This document shows positions 25,155-48,453 of a DNA stretch of 64,000 nt, in pieces. The notes under the pieces were generated by a model. That model made no database searches and was not told the origin of the DNA. It saw nothing but the letters and a program-made list of their open reading frames with translations. Source of the DNA: Candidatus Magasanikiibacteriota bacterium (GTDB lineage: Bacteria; Patescibacteriota; Patescibacteriia; Magasanikbacterales; GWA2-37-8); the NCBI GenBank assembly GCA_041665405.1, contig JBAYIZ010000006.1, forward strand, positions 407-64,406, given 5' to 3'. Within the stretch, counting starts at the first letter, position 1; every line of letters starts with the position of its first letter. Made by a program: the position numbers and the translations under genes.

Positions 25155-25240
25155 CAAAGGGTAACTTTTTCGCTTTTTTTGCCCGCGAGGGCAAAAGGAT
25201 GAGCCTCGGCTCATAACCCGCTCAAAAGTAACCCTTTGCT
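25155..25240 (+). ncRNA. candidate structured RNA / terminator-embedded repeat, copy 1
   Basis: Outer stem is GCAAAGGGT.../...ACCCTTTGC. It encloses the conserved core TTTTTCGCTTTTTTTGCCCGCGAGGGCAAAAGGATGAGCCTCGGCTCATAACCCGCTCAAAAG. Related copies are at 38645 and 48340. Confidence 0.5.
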
Positions 25241-25266: not shown

Positions 25267-27342
25267 ATGCCTCGTGAATATTCACTAGACAAAACACGTA
25301 ACATTGGTATTGCAGCTCACATCGACGCTGGTAAAACAACCACCACAGAACGTGTGCTTTTTTATACCGGTAAAAAACACAAAATTGGTGAGGTGCACGA
25401 AGGTGCCGCTGAAATGGACTGGATGGAACAAGAAAAAGAACGTGGTATTACTATTACTTCTGCCGCCACTACTTGTTTCTGGAAAGATCACCGCATCAAC
25501 ATCATCGACACTCCTGGACACGTAGACTTTACCGTAGAAGTAGAGCGCTCTTTGCGCGTGCTTGACGGTGCTGTCGCTGTGTTTGATGGATCTCAAGGTG
25601 TAGAACCACAGTCTGAAACTGTGTGGCACCAAGCTGACAAATATAATGTACCTCGCGTTCCTTTTATTAATAAAATGGATAAGTTGGGTGCAGATTTTTA
25701 TATGTGCATGGACTCAATCCATGAGCGTTTATCAAAAAACGCCTACGCCATTCAGTTACCACTTGGCGCTGATAGTACTTTTGAAGGTTTGATTGATGTG
25801 ATCGAAAGCAAAGCTTACCATTTCGAAGGAAAAAATGGTGAAATTGTTGTTGAGATTCCAATTCCAGCCGACATGGTAGAAAAAGTAAAAGAATATCGCA
25901 CAAAGTTGGTAGAAAAAGTTTCAGAGGCTAGTGACGAATTGATGGAAAAGTATTTGAATGGTCAAGAACTATCTGTCGACGAAATCAAAAAAGCTATCCG
26001 CACTTTAACTTTGAAAAATTTATTGTACCCAGTTATCTGTGGTTCTGCTTTGGCAAACATCGGCGTCCAATTTATGTTGGATGCAGTTGTAAGTTATTTG
26101 CCAGCCCCAACAGATTTGCCTCCAACCAAAGGTATTAATCCTGACACTGATGCTGAAGAAGTTCGCAATCCATCTGATGACGAGCCTTTCTCCGCTTTGG
26201 CTTTCAAGATCATGACCGATCCTTTTGTTGGTAAGTTGGTTTTCTTCCGCGTATACTCAGGACATGTTTCTGCTGGCAGTTATTTGCACAACGCTACAAC
26301 TGGCGAACGCAGTCGTTTGGGTCGCATTGTTCGTATGCATGCCAATCACCGTGAAGATGTGACTGACGTTTACTCTGGTGAAATTGCAGCTGCCATCGGT
26401 CTCAAGGATGTCACTACTGGCGATACTCTTTGTGACGAAGAACATCCAATCGTCTTAGAAAAAATTATCTTCCCAGAACCAGTTATTTCTGTGGCTATCG
26501 AACCAAAAACAAAACAGGACCAAGAGCGTATTGGTATGGCTATGCAGAAATTGGCTGAAGAAGACCCAACCTTCCGCATCAAGACTGATGAAGAAACTTT
26601 GCAAACCATTATTTCCGGCATGGGCGAGTTGCATTTGGACATTATCGTGGATCGCATGAAACGCGAGTTCAAGGTAGAAGCCAATGTTGGTGCCCCTCAG
26701 GTTGCCTACAAAGAAACTATCCGCACTACTGCCGAAGCTGAAGGAAAATACATCAAACAGTCTGGTGGTAAGGGTCAATTTGGCCATTGTTATCTCACTG
26801 TTGAGCCCCAAGAAGCTGGCAAAGGATTCGAGTTTGTCGATGAAATCAAAGGCGGAACAATTCCTCGTGAATTTATCCCTGCCATTGAAAAAGGTGTTAA
26901 AGAATCCCTAACTCGCGGTATTCAAGCTGGTTACCCGGTAGTAGACATCAAAGTAACTGTTACTGATGGCTCATACCATGAGGTGGATTCCTCTGAAATG
27001 GCTTTCAAAATGGCCGGATCGATGGCTTTCCAGACAGCTTGTAAAAAGGCCAACCCGGTGATTATGGAGCCTATTATGAAAGTCGAGGTAGTTACCCCAG
27101 AACAATATATGGGTGACTGCATCGGCGACTTAAACAGTAAACGTGGCCAAATACAAGAAATGTTTGACCGTGGCCAGATGAAGGTTGTGAAGGCAATGGT
27201 GCCTCTTGCGTCCATGTTTGGCTATGTCACCTCTTTGCGCTCTATGTCACAAGGTCGCGCTAGTTCCTCTATGGAATTCGATCACTATGCAGATGTTCCA
27301 GGTAATGTGGCTCAAAACATTGTCGCTGGAAAACAGAAATAA
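25267..27342 (+). CDS. fusA: elongation factor G
   Basis: G-domain motifs [18 protein letters not shown]. 691 aa. Confidence 0.97.
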
Positions 27343-27364: not shown

Positions 27365-27394
27365 ACCCACTTTCTAGACGAGGTGGGTTTTTGT
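27365..27394 (+). terminator. intrinsic terminator after fusA
   Basis: ACCCAC-N12-GTGGGT followed by TTTTTG. Confidence 0.7.
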
Positions 27395-27419: not shown

Positions 27420-27567
27420 TTTGTATACACTAGTCTATACAAAAGTGGATAAGTGTGTGCACAACTCCACTCTTGTGTGTATAACTTTTAACTGTTCGCC
27501 TTCTTAGCCACCCTTTTCTTGGCTAACCACAAAAGAAACTCTGTTTGTATAGACTAGTGTATACAAA
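27420..27567. repeat. 148-bp unit bounded by perfect 24-nt inverted repeats (MITE-like element or paired operators)
   Basis: TTTGTATACACTAGTCTATACAAA (27420-27443) has its exact reverse complement TTTGTATAGACTAGTGTATACAAA at 27544-27567. Each copy is itself quasi-palindromic around ACTAGT. Confidence 0.6.
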
Positions 27568-27570
27568 TGG

Positions 27571-27599
27571 TTGACAAAACTCCGTTTGTGTGCTATACT
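27571..27599 (+). promoter_or_regulatory. strong sigma70-type promoter of the unassigned transcript
   Basis: TTGACA-17 nt-TATACT, starting 3 nt after the right inverted repeat. Confidence 0.65.
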
Positions 27600-27605
27600 T
27601 AAATT

Positions 27606-27937
27606 GTAGTTCTTTACTACAATTTATATGTCCACTTATCAGTGGACCAAACCCATCGAACTGCTAAATAGAGAAGGGGATTCACAACTGCTGTACAAAT
27701 ATATTGAAGCGGTAGTGGCGAATCCAAACTTCTTGTCCGGTAACCTCAATCTTTGCGTCAATCTGACCTTTTGTGTCAGAATTACGCCTGAGGTATTACC
27801 TTCAAGCGGTCGGGGGTATCACTGTCTTGGTCTATGACAGCTCATCTATATGGTGACTGCTCTGATCATGTACAGCGCCTATAAGGGCAAGAGCCTTAAA
27901 ACTATGTTTATCGGGTTACTATGCCCTTATTTTTTTA
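27606..27937 (+). ncRNA. candidate about 330-nt noncoding RNA (class not recognised)
   Basis: It is bounded by a consensus promoter and a hairpin (AAGGGCA...TGCCCTT) plus T-run. Local hairpins: AAATTGTAG/CTACAATTT, GTCCAC/GTGGAC, CTGAC/GTCAG. Long-range pairing is possible between GCTGTACA (27690-97) and TGTACAGC (27869-76). The only ORF (69 aa) has no SD. Confidence 0.4.
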
Positions 27938-28004
27938 TAAATATTTTTACTTGACTACATCCGCTAATCTGTTATAATTATCCCATTGAAAATAATTAAT
28001 ATAT

Positions 28005-28391
28005 ATGGCCAAAACGACTTTTAGCAAAGAATTTGTTACAAAAATAAAAACCTTACTACTAAAGGAAAAAGAGACCTTGGAAAAAGAACTAGGTAAATTT
28101 TCTCAAAAAAATAGTCGTGTAGCTGGAGATTATAATAGTAATTTCCCAGAATACGGTGACAAAGACGATGAGAATGCCGCTGAAGTTGCAGAATATGCCA
28201 CTGAACTTCCTTTAGAAGAAAGCTTTGAAAAAACTTTGCGCGATAACATCCAAGCCTTAACGCGCTTGGAAAATGATACTTACGGAATTTGCAAGTATTG
28301 CAAAAAACCAATCGATGAAAAACGATTGCTGGCTCGTCCAACTTCCAACGCTTGTATTACTTGTAAAAAAGCCATCACTCAAGAAATCTAA
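28005..28391 (+). CDS. DksA/TraR-family C4 zinc-finger protein
   Basis: C-terminal CKYCKKPI...CITCK. It has its own TTGACT-16-TATAAT promoter at about 27950-27977. Confidence 0.8.
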   Translation: MAKTTFSKEFVTKIKTLLLKEKETLEKELGKFSQKNSRVAGDYNSNFPEYGDKDDENAAEVAEYATELPLEESFEKTLRDNIQALTRLENDTYGICKYCKKPIDEKRLLARPTSNACITCKKAITQEI

Positions 28392-36172: not shown

Positions 36173-36447
36173 AAAGGATGGTGCGGGTTACATTATTTAA
36201 TTAAGTATATATATAAAATAATAATAGTAATAAGGCTGTGGAAAGGGTTAATAAGTCGTTTTTTGTTTTCAAATTAGCCAAGTTTAAGGTGAATAATTTT
36301 TTAACAGTTTGGTATAAAAGTGTGTGTGAAAAACGATTTATTTAAGTTTATTTATTTTCTGTTGATAAGTGGTTGACTTGTTCTTTTTATATTAACAACT
36401 TATTAACATTCTTTGCACACCATTTAGCGAAGAAAAAAAACCATGTT
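36173..36447. other. oriC candidate, part 1 (dnaA-dnaN spacer): AT-rich unwinding region plus degenerate DnaA boxes
   Basis: 275-nt noncoding spacer. AT-only tract at 36205-36232. TGTTGATAA (36360-68, 8/9 match to TGTGGATAA) and TGTGGAAAG (36237-45). Confidence 0.55.
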
Positions 36448-37842
36448 TTAGATATTATTGATATATAAACGCTGTCTTATTAATTCTAGTTCTTGTTTTA
36501 GTTTTAAATCATTATCTATTTCTTTGGTAATTTTTTCGTTGGCATGCATCGCTGTGGTGTGATCGCGTCCGCCCAGCTCATCGCCAATGGAAGGGAAAGA
36601 CATTTTAAGATCATTACGCAAAATATACATAATAATCTGGCGAGGATAAGAGAGCTTCTTTTCTCGGCTTTTACCACAAACATTTTCGGTGGAAACATTG
36701 AAAAAGGTGCAAACAGTCTCTATGGTCTGTTGTGATGTGACTGAACGTCTAGCCGAAGCAGAATCAAAACTAGAAAGAATTGATTTTACTGATTCGGCTG
36801 TCGGGGCCATATTTTTTAATTGATGATAAGCAATAATTTTATTTAGGGCGCCTTCAAGCTCACGAATGTTGCTCTGAACAATAGTAGCAACTGTATTTAG
36901 GGTTTTGTCGTCCAAAACAAAATTCTTTTCTTGGCACTTTTTGCCCAAAATAGCGACACGTGTTTCAAAATCAGGGGCAGAAACATCCACAATCATTCCC
37001 CACTCGAAGCGAGATTTGAGGCGATCCTCAAGGGCAGGGATGGCTTTTGGTGGGCGGTCAGAAGTTAAAATTACCTGCTTGTTTGCCTGGTGGAGCTCGT
37101 TAAAAGTATGAAAAAACGATTCTTGGCTGGCATCTTTGCCAGCGATGAACTGAATATCATCAATTAACAAAGCGTCGATAGTACGATAGCGGTTTTGGAA
37201 GTCTCTCGCTCCACCACTACGCAAAGAAGTAATAAAATCGTTGGTAAATTTCTCAGCACTAACATACAAGATATTGGTTTGAGGGTTTTTTTTCAACAAT
37301 TCATTGCCAACCGCCTGTAAAAGATGGGTTTTCCCCAAACCTACACCACCGTAGATAAACAGTGGATTGTAGGCCTCACCAGGACGGTCTGCCACTGCCT
37401 TGGCGGCGGTGAAAGCCAATTCGGAGCCTTTGCCAACCACAAAACTATCAAAATTGTATTTTGGGTTAATGGTAAATCCATGAGAAGCGACAGATTGGTG
37501 ACTAGTTTGTTGAGAGTATGAAGGTGTTTTTTCGTTTTCATGAGATACCGACGGGGAAGGAGGGGTGTTTATTGGTTGTTCCACAACATTTTTGATATTT
37601 TCGATCTTGTATTCCATCCTTCTAATAGGAAGGGCGGTGACCCTCTCTAAAGATTGGATGATTTGGTGGTGGTGTTTTTTTTCAATCCACGCCTGATTAA
37701 AGGTGTTTGGGACGCAGACAATAACATGGCCTTCTTGAAAACTAACAATACCAGTATTTTTGAACCAGGTGTTAAAATTCGCTTTGGAAATGGTTAATTC
37801 TAATTCAGATAAAACAGCCTGCCAAATTTCATTATTAGTCAT
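36448..37842 (-). CDS. dnaA: chromosomal replication initiator DnaA
   Basis: AAA+ Walker A GGVGLGKTHL, a sensor region, and the C-terminal DnaA signature (GGRDHTTAMHA). Confidence 0.96.
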   Translation of the reverse strand: MTNNEIWQAVLSELELTISKANFNTWFKNTGIVSFQEGHVIVCVPNTFNQAWIEKKHHHQIIQSLERVTALPIRRMEYKIENIKNVVEQPINTPPSPSVSHENEKTPSYSQQTSHQSVASHGFTINPKYNFDSFVVGKGSELAFTAAKAVADRPGEAYNPLFIYGGVGLGKTHLLQAVGNELLKKNPQTNILYVSAEKFTNDFITSLRSGGARDFQNRYRTIDALLIDDIQFIAGKDASQESFFHTFNELHQANKQVILTSDRPPKAIPALEDRLKSRFEWGMIVDVSAPDFETRVAILGKKCQEKNFVLDDKTLNTVATIVQSNIRELEGALNKIIAYHQLKNMAPTAESVKSILSSFDSASARRSVTSQQTIETVCTFFNVSTENVCGKSREKKLSYPRQIIMYILRNDLKMSFPSIGDELGGRDHTTAMHANEKITKEIDNDLKLKQELELIRQRLYINNI

Positions 37843-38017
37843 AGATTGATAGTTTTATAAAACTTTTATGTTATTTTAGCACAGAAACACATCTATTAAA
37901 ACGTCGGAAATTAGCTAAAAGTGCAAAATATGTGGATAAACTGGGGATACTGTGGATTGTTGACTAAAAGCCGTTTATATGGTAATATATTCAACATAAT
38001 ACATTAAATAAAAAGGT
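37843..38017. other. oriC candidate, part 2 / dnaA promoter region with DnaA boxes
   Basis: Perfect TGTGGATAA at 37931-37939 and TGTGGATTG at 37951-37959. Confidence 0.6.
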
Positions 38018-38644: not shown

Positions 38645-38739
38645 AAAAAACTTTTATTTTATTTCGCTTTTTTTGCCCGCGAGGGCAAAAGGATGAAGCC
38701 GCGGCTTCATAACCCGCTCAATTAAAATAAAAGTTTTTT
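38645..38739 (+). ncRNA. candidate structured RNA / terminator-embedded repeat, copy 2
   Basis: A 17-bp outer stem (AAAAAACTTTTATTTTA/TAAAATAAAAGTTTTTT) encloses the core TTTCGCTTTTTTTGCCCGCGAGGGCAAAAGGATGAAGCCGCGGCTTCATAACCCGCTCAA. Confidence 0.5.
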
Positions 38740-48312: not shown

Positions 48313-48339
48313 TCGAAATAGCAGTAGTGCTGTAGAACA

Positions 48340-48437
48340 AACATCCCAGACAATGACTTTTTCGCTTTTTTCGACCGCGAGGTCGAAAGGATGAGCCTCG
48401 GCTCATAACCCGCTCAAAAGTAATTGTCTGGGATGTT
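48340..48437 (+). ncRNA. candidate structured RNA / terminator-embedded repeat, copy 3
   Basis: A 15-bp perfect outer stem (AACATCCCAGACAAT/ATTGTCTGGGATGTT) is followed by a T7 run. It encloses the core TTTTTCGCTTTTTTCGACCGCGAGGTCGAAAGGATGAGCCTCGGCTCATAACCCGCTCAAAAG. Confidence 0.55.
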
Positions 48438-48453
48438 TTTTTGTACCATAAAA

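Follow-up and report, generated by a model that had tools for sequence, protein, structure and literature searches.

Phased predicted operators bracketing DnaA-type boxes upstream of a structured RNA gene in Candidatus Magasanikbacteria

Background

Regulation through auxiliary operators and DNA looping is known from lac O1/O2/O3, gal OE/OI, deo, araO2/I1 and lambda CI OL-OR, and paired sites are also represented by the NrdR boxes (16 bp, about 31-32 bp apart), which are recognized by an ATP-cone regulator at nrd genes. Clusters of DnaA boxes combined with sites of a second regulator are in turn found in E. coli datA/DARS2 (IHF/Fis), among the CtrA sites of Caulobacter Cori and among the Spo0A boxes of the B. 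subtilis oriC, and dnaA and nrd possess DnaA-regulated promoters. In this work, we analyzed a unit composed of two copies of a 24-bp near-palindrome (pal1 and pal2), located at positions 27,420-27,567 of a 64,000-nucleotide stretch of a Candidatus Magasanikiibacteriota genome (GenBank accession No. GCA_041665405.1, contig JBAYIZ010000006.1; the whole stretch is referred to as the window and all coordinates are counted from its first letter). It is probable that this unit constitutes the control region preceding a conserved non-coding RNA gene of Candidatus Magasanikbacteria and related Patescibacteria, in which a phased pair of operators brackets DnaA boxes. We document the anatomy of the motifs, their conservation and quantised spacing, the distribution of the palindrome, which resembles that of a regulon site, the layout of an associated helix-turn-helix (HTH) gene, which suggests autoregulation, and the structure of the RNA.

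Similarly to the looping systems listed above, there are at least two copies of one dyad-symmetric (predicted) operator separated by an integral number of helical turns, and one operator copy is placed on a core promoter, here at the gene of the candidate regulator itself. Unlike in those systems, the regulator would belong to another family, the predicted loop, with about 78-121 bp between sites, is very short and would enclose a DnaA-box array instead of the promoter, and the predicted operator of 24 bp is almost invariant across a class-level lineage. The NrdR boxes resemble the unit in being paired palindromic sites of fixed helical phase, upstream of promoters and widely conserved phylogenetically; however, their sequence and targets are different, and the palindromes described here are spaced by 10-14 turns. 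With datA/DARS2 and the regulator sites of oriC the unit shares several co-oriented 9-mers matching the universal DnaA box TTATCCACA (with at most 1-2 mismatches, within ~50 bp), an origin-proximal position and the tight interleaving of these 9-mers with sites for another predicted DNA-binding protein. It differs from them in that the second sites are phased palindromes bracketing the boxes and coupled to the promoter of a non-coding RNA, that the association of palindromes and boxes recurs at other genes, and that the binding of DnaA is a prediction. Phased predicted operators bracketing a DnaA-box array are a variation on the known regulation by operator pairs, in a phylum whose regulation is essentially unexplored. 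In the literature searched, we found no description of the palindrome motif (the TGTATACA operator), of the candidate regulator or of the structured RNA.

Anatomy and conservation of the unit

The elements follow each other in the order pal1, three co-oriented 9-mers, a variable stretch, the TTGGCTAA/TTAGCCAAA motif, pal2, the promoter and the RNA gene. In the window they are localized as follows:

27420-27443, no strand: pal1, the predicted distal operator, a 24-bp near-palindrome TTTGTATACACTAGTCTATACAAA
27444-27452, + strand: DnaA-box-like 9-mer 1 (box 1), AGTGGATAA, abutting pal1; consensus TGTGGATAA
27456-27464, + strand: DnaA-box-like 9-mer 2 (box 2), TGTGCACAA, degenerate; offset +12/13 in most loci
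27476-27484, + strand: DnaA-box-like 9-mer 3 (box 3), TGTGTATAA, at the fixed offset +32/33; the "degenerate -10" of the initial annotation
27519-27526, - strand: TTGGCTAA motif (reverse complement TTAGCCAA), conserved in the alignment
27544-27567, no strand: pal2, the predicted proximal operator, TTTGTATAGACTAGTGTATACAAA, starting 124 bp after the start of pal1
27571-27599, + strand: sigma-70-type promoter TTGACA-17-TATACT with an extended -10 TG; 11/12 consensus match
27606-27936, + strand: unclassified structured RNA gene, ~331 nt, with a terminal stem (27883-27928) and a T-run (27930-27936)

Homologous loci were gathered in two ways. The palindrome-ascertained loci were found through the palindrome, and RNA homologues were then recognized among them by nhmmer; the RNA-ascertained sample consists of 30 metagenome loci, found by a pattern built from conserved RNA positions only. 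RNA homologues were present in 24 palindrome-ascertained loci, in each case immediately downstream of a palindrome pair. Reciprocally, the palindrome was found upstream of the RNA in 30/30 RNA-ascertained loci, and 27 of them had a clear pair; in the remaining loci the distal copy was degenerate (one locus), missing (one) or cut off by the contig end (one). Pal1 was kept in place in the 24 palindrome-ascertained loci and in about 28/29 of the RNA-ascertained loci with enough upstream sequence. Its positions 1-8 and 17-23 are 86-100% conserved in the homologous units, the outer positions of both palindromes show the same level of conservation, and variability prevails in the flanks and over most of the interior. 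The gene upstream of the unit varies across the homologous loci (it is fusA in some of them) and the module stays with the RNA gene, downstream of which the order RNA, dksA-like, lspA, comM, orf173 and the gene of a penicillin-binding protein is conserved.

Concerning the boxes, the offset of box 1 from pal1 is 0 or 1 in 22/25 loci, and in most relatives this box is a perfect TGTGGATAA, the reverse complement of the universal DnaA box. In the relatives, box 2 reads TGTGTATAA, TGGGTATAA or TGTGGAAAA and box 3 reads TGTGGATAA or TGGGGATAA. The initial annotation, made from the window alone, had described the third box as part of a degenerate copy of the downstream promoter. This interpretation had to be abandoned, as the alleged copy has no -35 partner and coincides with boxes 2 and 3, and the position of the supposed internal -10 is occupied in relatives by the box sequences just given, not by a -10.

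Most of the remaining anatomy was confirmed. The segment 27544-27567 is the exact reverse complement of TTTGTATACACTAGTCTATACAAA (27420-27443) across an interior of 100 nt, and each arm is itself palindromic except at two positions; a comparable arm match was not obtained in any of 100 dinucleotide-preserving shuffles of the window (0/100). The perfect inverted repeat is actually 25 nt long (27419-27443/27544-27568), the arm pair is also a 92% direct repeat, and with up to 3 mismatches allowed the 64-kb window contained no further copy of the 24-mer. The DnaA-box-like GTGGATAAG is present at 27445-27453, and the right arm is separated by 3 nt (TGG) from the -35 TTGACA (27571-27576); the -10 TATACT occupies 27594-27599, with a TG just upstream (TGcTATACT), and both TTGACAAAA and TGnTATAmT are kept in every aligned RNA locus. 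The interior hairpin also exists, TTAGCCA-N9-TGGCTAA (27504-27526), but its loop has 9 nt and not the 10 nt reported before, and conservation in relatives is limited to its right arm (TTGGCTAA).

In 46 distinct homologous units, the inverted match between the arms was better than the direct one in 11 units, equal in 22 and worse in 13. We regard the exact mirror symmetry of the window arms, as well as the "promoter copy", as incidental features of this particular sequence. A conserved mirror asymmetry (inner versus outer half-sites) was also considered; it is unsupported by this comparison of arms. The same data bear on the idea of an invertible switch, i.e., a site-specific recombinase flipping the 100-bp segment between the repeats and in this way changing expression, which is suggested by inverted repeats flanking a short segment beside a promoter. 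This explanation is very improbable, because the promoter lies outside the segment, there is no recombinase gene among the neighbours, the arms are equally good as direct repeats, and the boxes stand beside the distal arm in a constant orientation, with no flipped variant in 25 palindrome-ascertained and 30 RNA-ascertained loci.

In the window, the genes upstream of the unit are rpsL, rpsG and fusA (25267-27342), and downstream of the RNA lies a dksA/traR-like gene (28005-28391; Pfam PF01258 and NCBIfam DksA-like matches, both below the cutoff), whose promoter CTTGACTA...TATAAT is conserved, followed by lspA and a comM-like gene. Two features delimit the module from the outside:

27365-27388, + strand: intrinsic terminator of fusA (9-bp stem and T-run), the upstream boundary
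27951-27978, + strand: separate promoter of the dksA/traR-like gene; 11/12 match

The position of the terminator is relevant for the possibility that the palindromes act at the RNA level, as transcribed hairpins involved in processing, termination or control of translation. Each 24-mer can indeed form a 10-12-bp hairpin, and at the HTH gene described below the palindrome would fall in the 5' untranslated region, just before the ATG. Nevertheless, both copies are placed between the preceding terminator and the promoter (in the window and in the RNA loci) and are probably untranscribed, the palindromes lack a T-run, and what is conserved at 86-100% at the outer positions is the sequence itself, beyond its pairing potential. 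We consider a function of this kind highly unlikely.

Helical phasing of the palindrome pair

The start-to-start distances between pal1 and pal2 in the 46 distinct units fall into five classes, i.e., 101-105 bp (15 units), 113-115 bp (8), 122-125 bp (13), 134-137 bp (9), and 145 bp (1), and no unit had a spacing between them. For the first 25 loci, with the five classes taken as independent values, the vector strength was R = 0.98 at 10.6 bp per turn, a value which random spacings reached in ~0.1% of trials (P about 0.001). All length variation of the unit is confined to the region between box 3 and pal2. Phased spacing would result from a requirement for the proteins bound at the two sites to face each other, and judging by the sequence pattern such phasing implies cooperative binding or looping of the putative operators.

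Distribution of the palindrome

A scan for the 22-mer core TTGTATANACTAGTNTATACAA was performed over 185,579 species-representative genomes; the numbers of palindrome loci, neighbours and copies per genome given in this and the following sections are counts among the matches listed, hence lower bounds. The core was present in at least 118 stretches, all of them from Magasanikbacteria/Patescibacteria metagenome-assembled genomes (MAGs) except for one Gracilibacillus match. The latter, the sole match listed from outside the Candidate Phyla Radiation (CPR), adjoins an AbrB/MazE-like gene and was treated as unrelated. The further copies of the 24-mer, for which the initial annotation had proposed to look, do exist: there are several palindrome loci per MAG, and different locus types share MAGs (e.g., L003/L024/L055 and L028/L011/L007). 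At up to 4 mismatches 242 sites were recognized, 229 of which (95%) are intergenic; they occur as singles, pairs, triplets and runs of up to seven, typically with 70-135 bp between sites, and their consensus is TTTGTATA(C/G)ACTAGT(G/C)TATACAAA.

The recurrent neighbours of the palindrome are genes of an extracytoplasmic function (ECF)-type sigma factor (36), RmuC (17), a 590-aa protein of unknown function (9), and a tetratricopeptide repeat (TPR) membrane protein (7), as well as Vut_1, holA and the dCMP deaminase gene. The densest array comprises seven palindromes in 360 bp, upstream of an rmuC-like gene (L068, 5998-6357). The gene of the Vut_1 transporter (putative uptake of queuosine precursor/vitamin) is flanked by two palindromes 751-783 bp apart, one ~22 nt before the ATG and the other past the gene end (L023, L035, L112, L026, and L066). 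It was also observed that dozens of third-party annotation (TPA) MAGs titled "uncultured Gammaproteobacteria bacterium" (L001, L003-L005, L008, and many others) have the gene order of the window and a FusA 85-94% identical to the window FusA, and for these two reasons their titles look mis-assigned.

These data allowed us to evaluate the first of the two interpretations offered initially, namely that the 24-25-nt arms are terminal inverted repeats of a non-autonomous mobile element, i.e., a miniature inverted-repeat transposable element (MITE), or a unit similar to repetitive extragenic palindromic (REP) sequences and bacterial interspersed mosaic elements (BIMEs). Perfect 25-nt inverted repeats around a short non-coding interior and the presence of the 24-mer at many places in related genomes are in line with it. 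However, no target-site duplication was found (the flanks are ...TTACTAA/A-arm versus arm-T/GGTTGAC), and the arms are self-palindromic and form sites occurring singly, in threes or up to seven, not in defined pairs. Moreover, when palindrome pairs from different loci of one MAG are compared, their interiors resemble each other no more than shuffled sequences do (z from -1.3 to 2.6). The 64 kb contain a single locus and each MAG a handful, the spacing is quantised in helical turns, and the synteny of the unit is constant, with the same RNA gene always following it. The presence/absence polymorphism that might be sought among relatives was not seen either, as the palindrome was never missing from the RNA-ascertained loci and no precise empty site was found. 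Thus, the absence of a duplication, the unrelated interiors, the low number of loci per genome and the constant synteny refute the mobile-element interpretation, to which we assign a negligible probability.

A real dispersed element of these genomes is a different repeat of ~68 nt (...TTTTTTCGACCGCGAGGTCGAAAGGATGAGCCTCGGCTCATAACCCGCTC...), which folds into two tandem hairpins. Its copies in the window (25164-25231, 38662-38721, and 48356-48423) are each located just 3' of a gene (rpsG, rnpA, and tRNA-Cys), and it was found in at least seven other Magasanikbacteria loci (L053, L108, L042, L019, L118, L011, and L022); no Rfam family corresponds to it. As a candidate for a REP/MITE-like or terminator-like repeat, it is preferable to the palindrome unit.

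Candidate regulator

In 31 loci, the outermost palindrome is located 1-23 nt before the ATG of a gene encoding one conserved protein family of ~100-140 aa. These proteins match Pfam HTH_17 (PF12728; E = 2e-9, 38.0 bits versus a cutoff of 27), and their match to NCBIfam TIGR01764 (excisionase domain) remains below the cutoff (24.3 versus 28.8). The family comprises 1,224 sequence clusters; the named members among the matches listed are almost all from Magasanikbacteria/Patescibacteria and bear only generic labels ("excisionase family", "HTH domain"). The AlphaFold model shows a winged-helix core (beta-H-H-beta-beta-H) with a predicted local distance difference test (pLDDT) score of 80-86, and the C-terminal extension KGIGQFVxxWKIKNPLYSPNPK is strongly conserved and modelled with low confidence. 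A PDB sequence search with the candidate gave nothing significant, and the nearest solved folds indicated by Foldseek were mycobacteriophage Xis, BldC, RacA and MerR-type proteins, with weak E-values of 6e-3 to 0.1; the model core superposes on Xis and BldC with a template modelling (TM) score of 0.63-0.75 relative to the target. For the comparison with BldC/Xis/MerR-type proteins, the structures PDB 6ama, 4j2n, 5d8c and 5i44 were used. Like BldC, the candidate is small and has no obvious sensor domain. BldC and Xis assemble head-to-tail on direct repeats; the predicted site of the candidate, in contrast, is a palindrome, and the conserved C-terminal extension of the protein has no counterpart in the structures compared.

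The promoter of the HTH_17 gene is composed of TTGACAAAA, a 17-nt spacer and an extended -10. In 20/31 HTH_17 loci the predicted operator starts 26-28 nt after the start of the -35, so that it extends over the last part of the -10 and over the transcription start. Further upstream, at 70-130 bp, there are one or two additional operator copies, with spacings of a similar helical pattern, noisier than at the RNA loci. On sequence grounds, this layout is the classical signature of a putatively autorepressed regulator, and the HTH_17 protein is likely to be the palindrome binder and to be autoregulated; its identity as such is indicated by genomic association. The initial annotation had pointed to the need of finding a regulator of matching specificity, and the conserved HTH_17 family with the palindrome at its own promoter, found in other genomes, is such a candidate.

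An ECF-type sigma-70 gene (Sigma70_r2 + r4_2) is divergent from the HTH_17 gene in 36 loci. Right before its ATG, inspection by eye revealed a conserved TGTAACA-N16-CGTCT element (L013, L037, L058, L079, L089, L103, and other HTH_17 loci), which looks like a putative ECF-type autoregulated promoter with a very short leader.

The structured RNA

The region 3' of the unit is regarded, from its sequence, as a structured RNA that is unclassified, has a length of about 295-355 nt in the family and probably represents a new class. The fold of the ~335-nt region is much more stable than that of shuffled sequence (minimum free energy z = -6.3). The consensus derived from a 23-sequence alignment comprises 30 base pairs in six helices, with compensatory double changes at 15/30 pairs. 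Of the cells, 95.8% are paired, versus 32-53% when the partners are slid by 1-3 columns, and cells changed on both sides number 78, versus 2-10 in the slid controls; the observed covariation values were reached by none of the 500 shuffles (0/500). An invariant U:G pair and frequent changes of G:C to G:U fit the + strand. The consensus promoter, the terminal stem and the T-run of the gene are all conserved, and the RNA itself is conserved across Magasanikbacteria, always upstream of the dksA/traR-like gene. No match to Rfam 15 was obtained at the gathering score for the window, 16 homologous loci or a divergent homologue, and at E up to 10 there were only scattered sub-threshold chance matches; ARAGORN indicated no tmRNA. 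A 69-aa open reading frame (ORF; 27628-27837) was rejected as a gene, as it has no Pfam match and is broken by frame-breaking indels in relatives.

DnaA-type boxes and the vicinity of the origin

Motifs matching the DnaA box with at most 1 mismatch are 37.6-fold enriched within 70 nt of the palindromes at the RNA loci and 11.9-fold near the palindromes at other loci (P about 1e-73). Since the enrichment is found in both sets, palindromes and boxes travel together generally; the locked offsets of the boxes are specific to the RNA locus. The motif TTAGCYAAR is 24-fold enriched near the palindromes at the RNA loci and 1.8-fold at other palindrome loci, and it occurs also in the dnaA-dnaN and dnaA-rpmH spacers. 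As a separate observation, this motif is over-represented in the whole window (14 copies versus 3.9 expected; 0/100 shuffles reach 14), with copies at, e.g., 24188, 27518, 30957, 36274, 37911, 61873, 63864 and 63929, several of them intergenic or promoter-proximal.

In the window, dnaN and dnaA (36448-37842) are located 7-10 kb downstream of the unit. The spacer between dnaA and rpmH (37911-37965) contains TTAGCTAAA followed by three tandem DnaA-like boxes (TGTGGATAA, TGGGGATAC, and TGTGGATTG) abutting a TTGACT -35, and the one between dnaA and dnaN (36173-36447) has a GC content of 0.26, TTAGCCAAG and degenerate boxes. Both spacers are likely parts of oriC, and the palindrome is absent from both. 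The unit was also considered as oriC itself and rejected in this role: it has no AT-rich unwinding stretch, and the dnaA-flanking spacers (GC content of 0.26, own box triplet) are more origin-like. A canonical parS is absent from the window.

It should be asked whether the primary role of the unit is in replication, i.e., whether it is an origin-proximal cluster of DnaA boxes following the logic of datA/DARS or of regulator sites inside oriC. In such a case, the palindromes would bind an architectural or origin-regulating protein, the main output would be the availability of DnaA or the timing of initiation, and the RNA promoter would either lie nearby or be targeted secondarily. There are several arguments for this: three DnaA-type boxes in one orientation at fixed positions, the distance of 7-10 kb from dnaN/dnaA in both the window and L008, four DnaA-like boxes within a palindrome pair at 1.8 kb from dnaN in L067, and three palindromes ~2 kb from dnaN in L074. 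To these can be added the TTAGCYAA motif common to the unit and the two dnaA spacers, the enrichment of boxes near palindromes in general and not only at the RNA locus, the presence of RacA, an origin-region anchoring protein, among the fold relatives of the candidate regulator, and of holA, rmuC and dCMP deaminase among the palindrome neighbours. On the other hand, the palindrome on the -10 and start site of the HTH gene is in a transcriptional position, the unit is always coupled to the RNA promoter, and the oriC candidates beside dnaA in the window have DnaA boxes and no palindrome. We consider a role primarily in replication unlikely; it is compatible with a part of the model proposed below, and the two readings are not mutually exclusive.

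Proposed mechanism

In our opinion, transcriptional control of the RNA gene explains the unit best. The palindrome is a dyad site conserved far above its flanks, it is intergenic and adjacent to several unrelated genes, and it overlaps the promoter of a DNA-binding-protein gene. Its occurrence upstream of a small set of unrelated genes, the overlap with the core promoter of the HTH gene and the spacing in helical turns are the basis on which the operator reading, the second of the two interpretations put forward initially, was retained. The postulated pair of looping dimer operators about 124 bp apart is supported in substance, but the enclosed DNA is a DnaA-box array, and the promoter lies outside the pair.

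According to the proposed model, a regulator specific to this lineage would bind as a dimer to each copy of the 24-bp operator. It is most likely the ~100-140-aa HTH_17 protein (an Xis/BldC/MerR-like winged-helix protein), encoded elsewhere in the genome and divergently from the ECF-type sigma gene, and this protein would repress its own promoter via the same palindrome. Protein binding at the palindromes is a prediction. As the operators are integral helical turns apart, dimers bound on the same face of DNA could interact and close a loop of ~100 bp. This putative loop would enclose the three co-oriented DnaA-type boxes beside the distal operator and the TTGGCTAA motif, with the strong sigma-70 promoter of the RNA placed just past the proximal operator (3 nt beyond it in the window). 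The regulator and DnaA may jointly set the output of the RNA promoter, and looping might exclude or trap DnaA and limit the access of polymerase or of the upstream element. The conserved geometry between pal1 and the boxes and between pal1 and pal2 points to an interplay with a box-binding factor, most plausibly DnaA; this binding of DnaA to the boxes is inferred, and a sign of regulation, repression, is suggested by the operator position at the regulator's own gene.

Several observations weigh against this model. The distance from pal2 to the -35 varies: about half of the loci have 3-9 nt, and the others have 40-105 nt (these long gaps carry a second TTAGCCAAAA). As this distance is not fixed, direct contact of the polymerase from pal2 cannot be the conserved mechanism. 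Compared with TGTGGATAA, the window has one mismatch in box 1 and two in box 2. DNA loops as short as ~100 bp carry a high energetic cost unless a bending factor assists, for whose site the TTAGCCAA motif is only a candidate. With respect to the regulator, tblastn revealed no copy of the HTH_17 protein in the 64-kb window, and the assignment is based on adjacency and promoter overlap in other genomes. Finally, the copies per genome are lower bounds only, and the kinship of the sequences inflates the apparent independence in the statistics on spacing and covariation.

Other features of the window

Two further regions of the window attracted attention. The segment 48330-48960, located after tRNA-Cys, is ORF-poor, has a GC content of 0.44 and a fold z of -6.65, and contains a ~100-nt hairpin (48339-48440) and, towards its 3' end, a perfect GC-rich hairpin of 20 bp; the segment matched no Rfam family. 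The segment 10770-11678 is a 0.9-kb gap with a GC content of 0.49 (versus the window average of about 0.38) between tgt (- strand) and an uvrD-like gene (+ strand), i.e., at a switch of gene orientation. It carries only overlapping short ORFs on both strands, its fold z is -2.9, and it gave no Rfam match.

Significance

The protein-DNA predictions made here lend themselves to tests in vitro that need no culture, only synthetic DNA and recombinant proteins. It is conceivable, but rather improbable, that the palindrome, the HTH_17 protein, DnaA and the ~330-nt RNA form a replication-linked or cell-cycle-like circuit of this CPR branch. If this were true, a master regulator encoded beside an ECF sigma factor would loop origin-proximal DNA around a DnaA-box array and gate DnaA in a datA/DARS-like manner, and the same circuit would control a new abundant structured RNA. 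Because the bacteria of the CPR are uncultivated, next to nothing is known of how their genes are regulated. For these organisms, the locus yields a nearly invariant 24-bp predicted operator together with a candidate cognate regulator family, a small predicted regulon including an ECF sigma factor and genes of DNA metabolism, a conserved coupling of operators and DnaA-type boxes whose helical phasing predicts looping, and what is probably a new class of ~330-nt structured RNA, the best-conserved target of the predicted operator.

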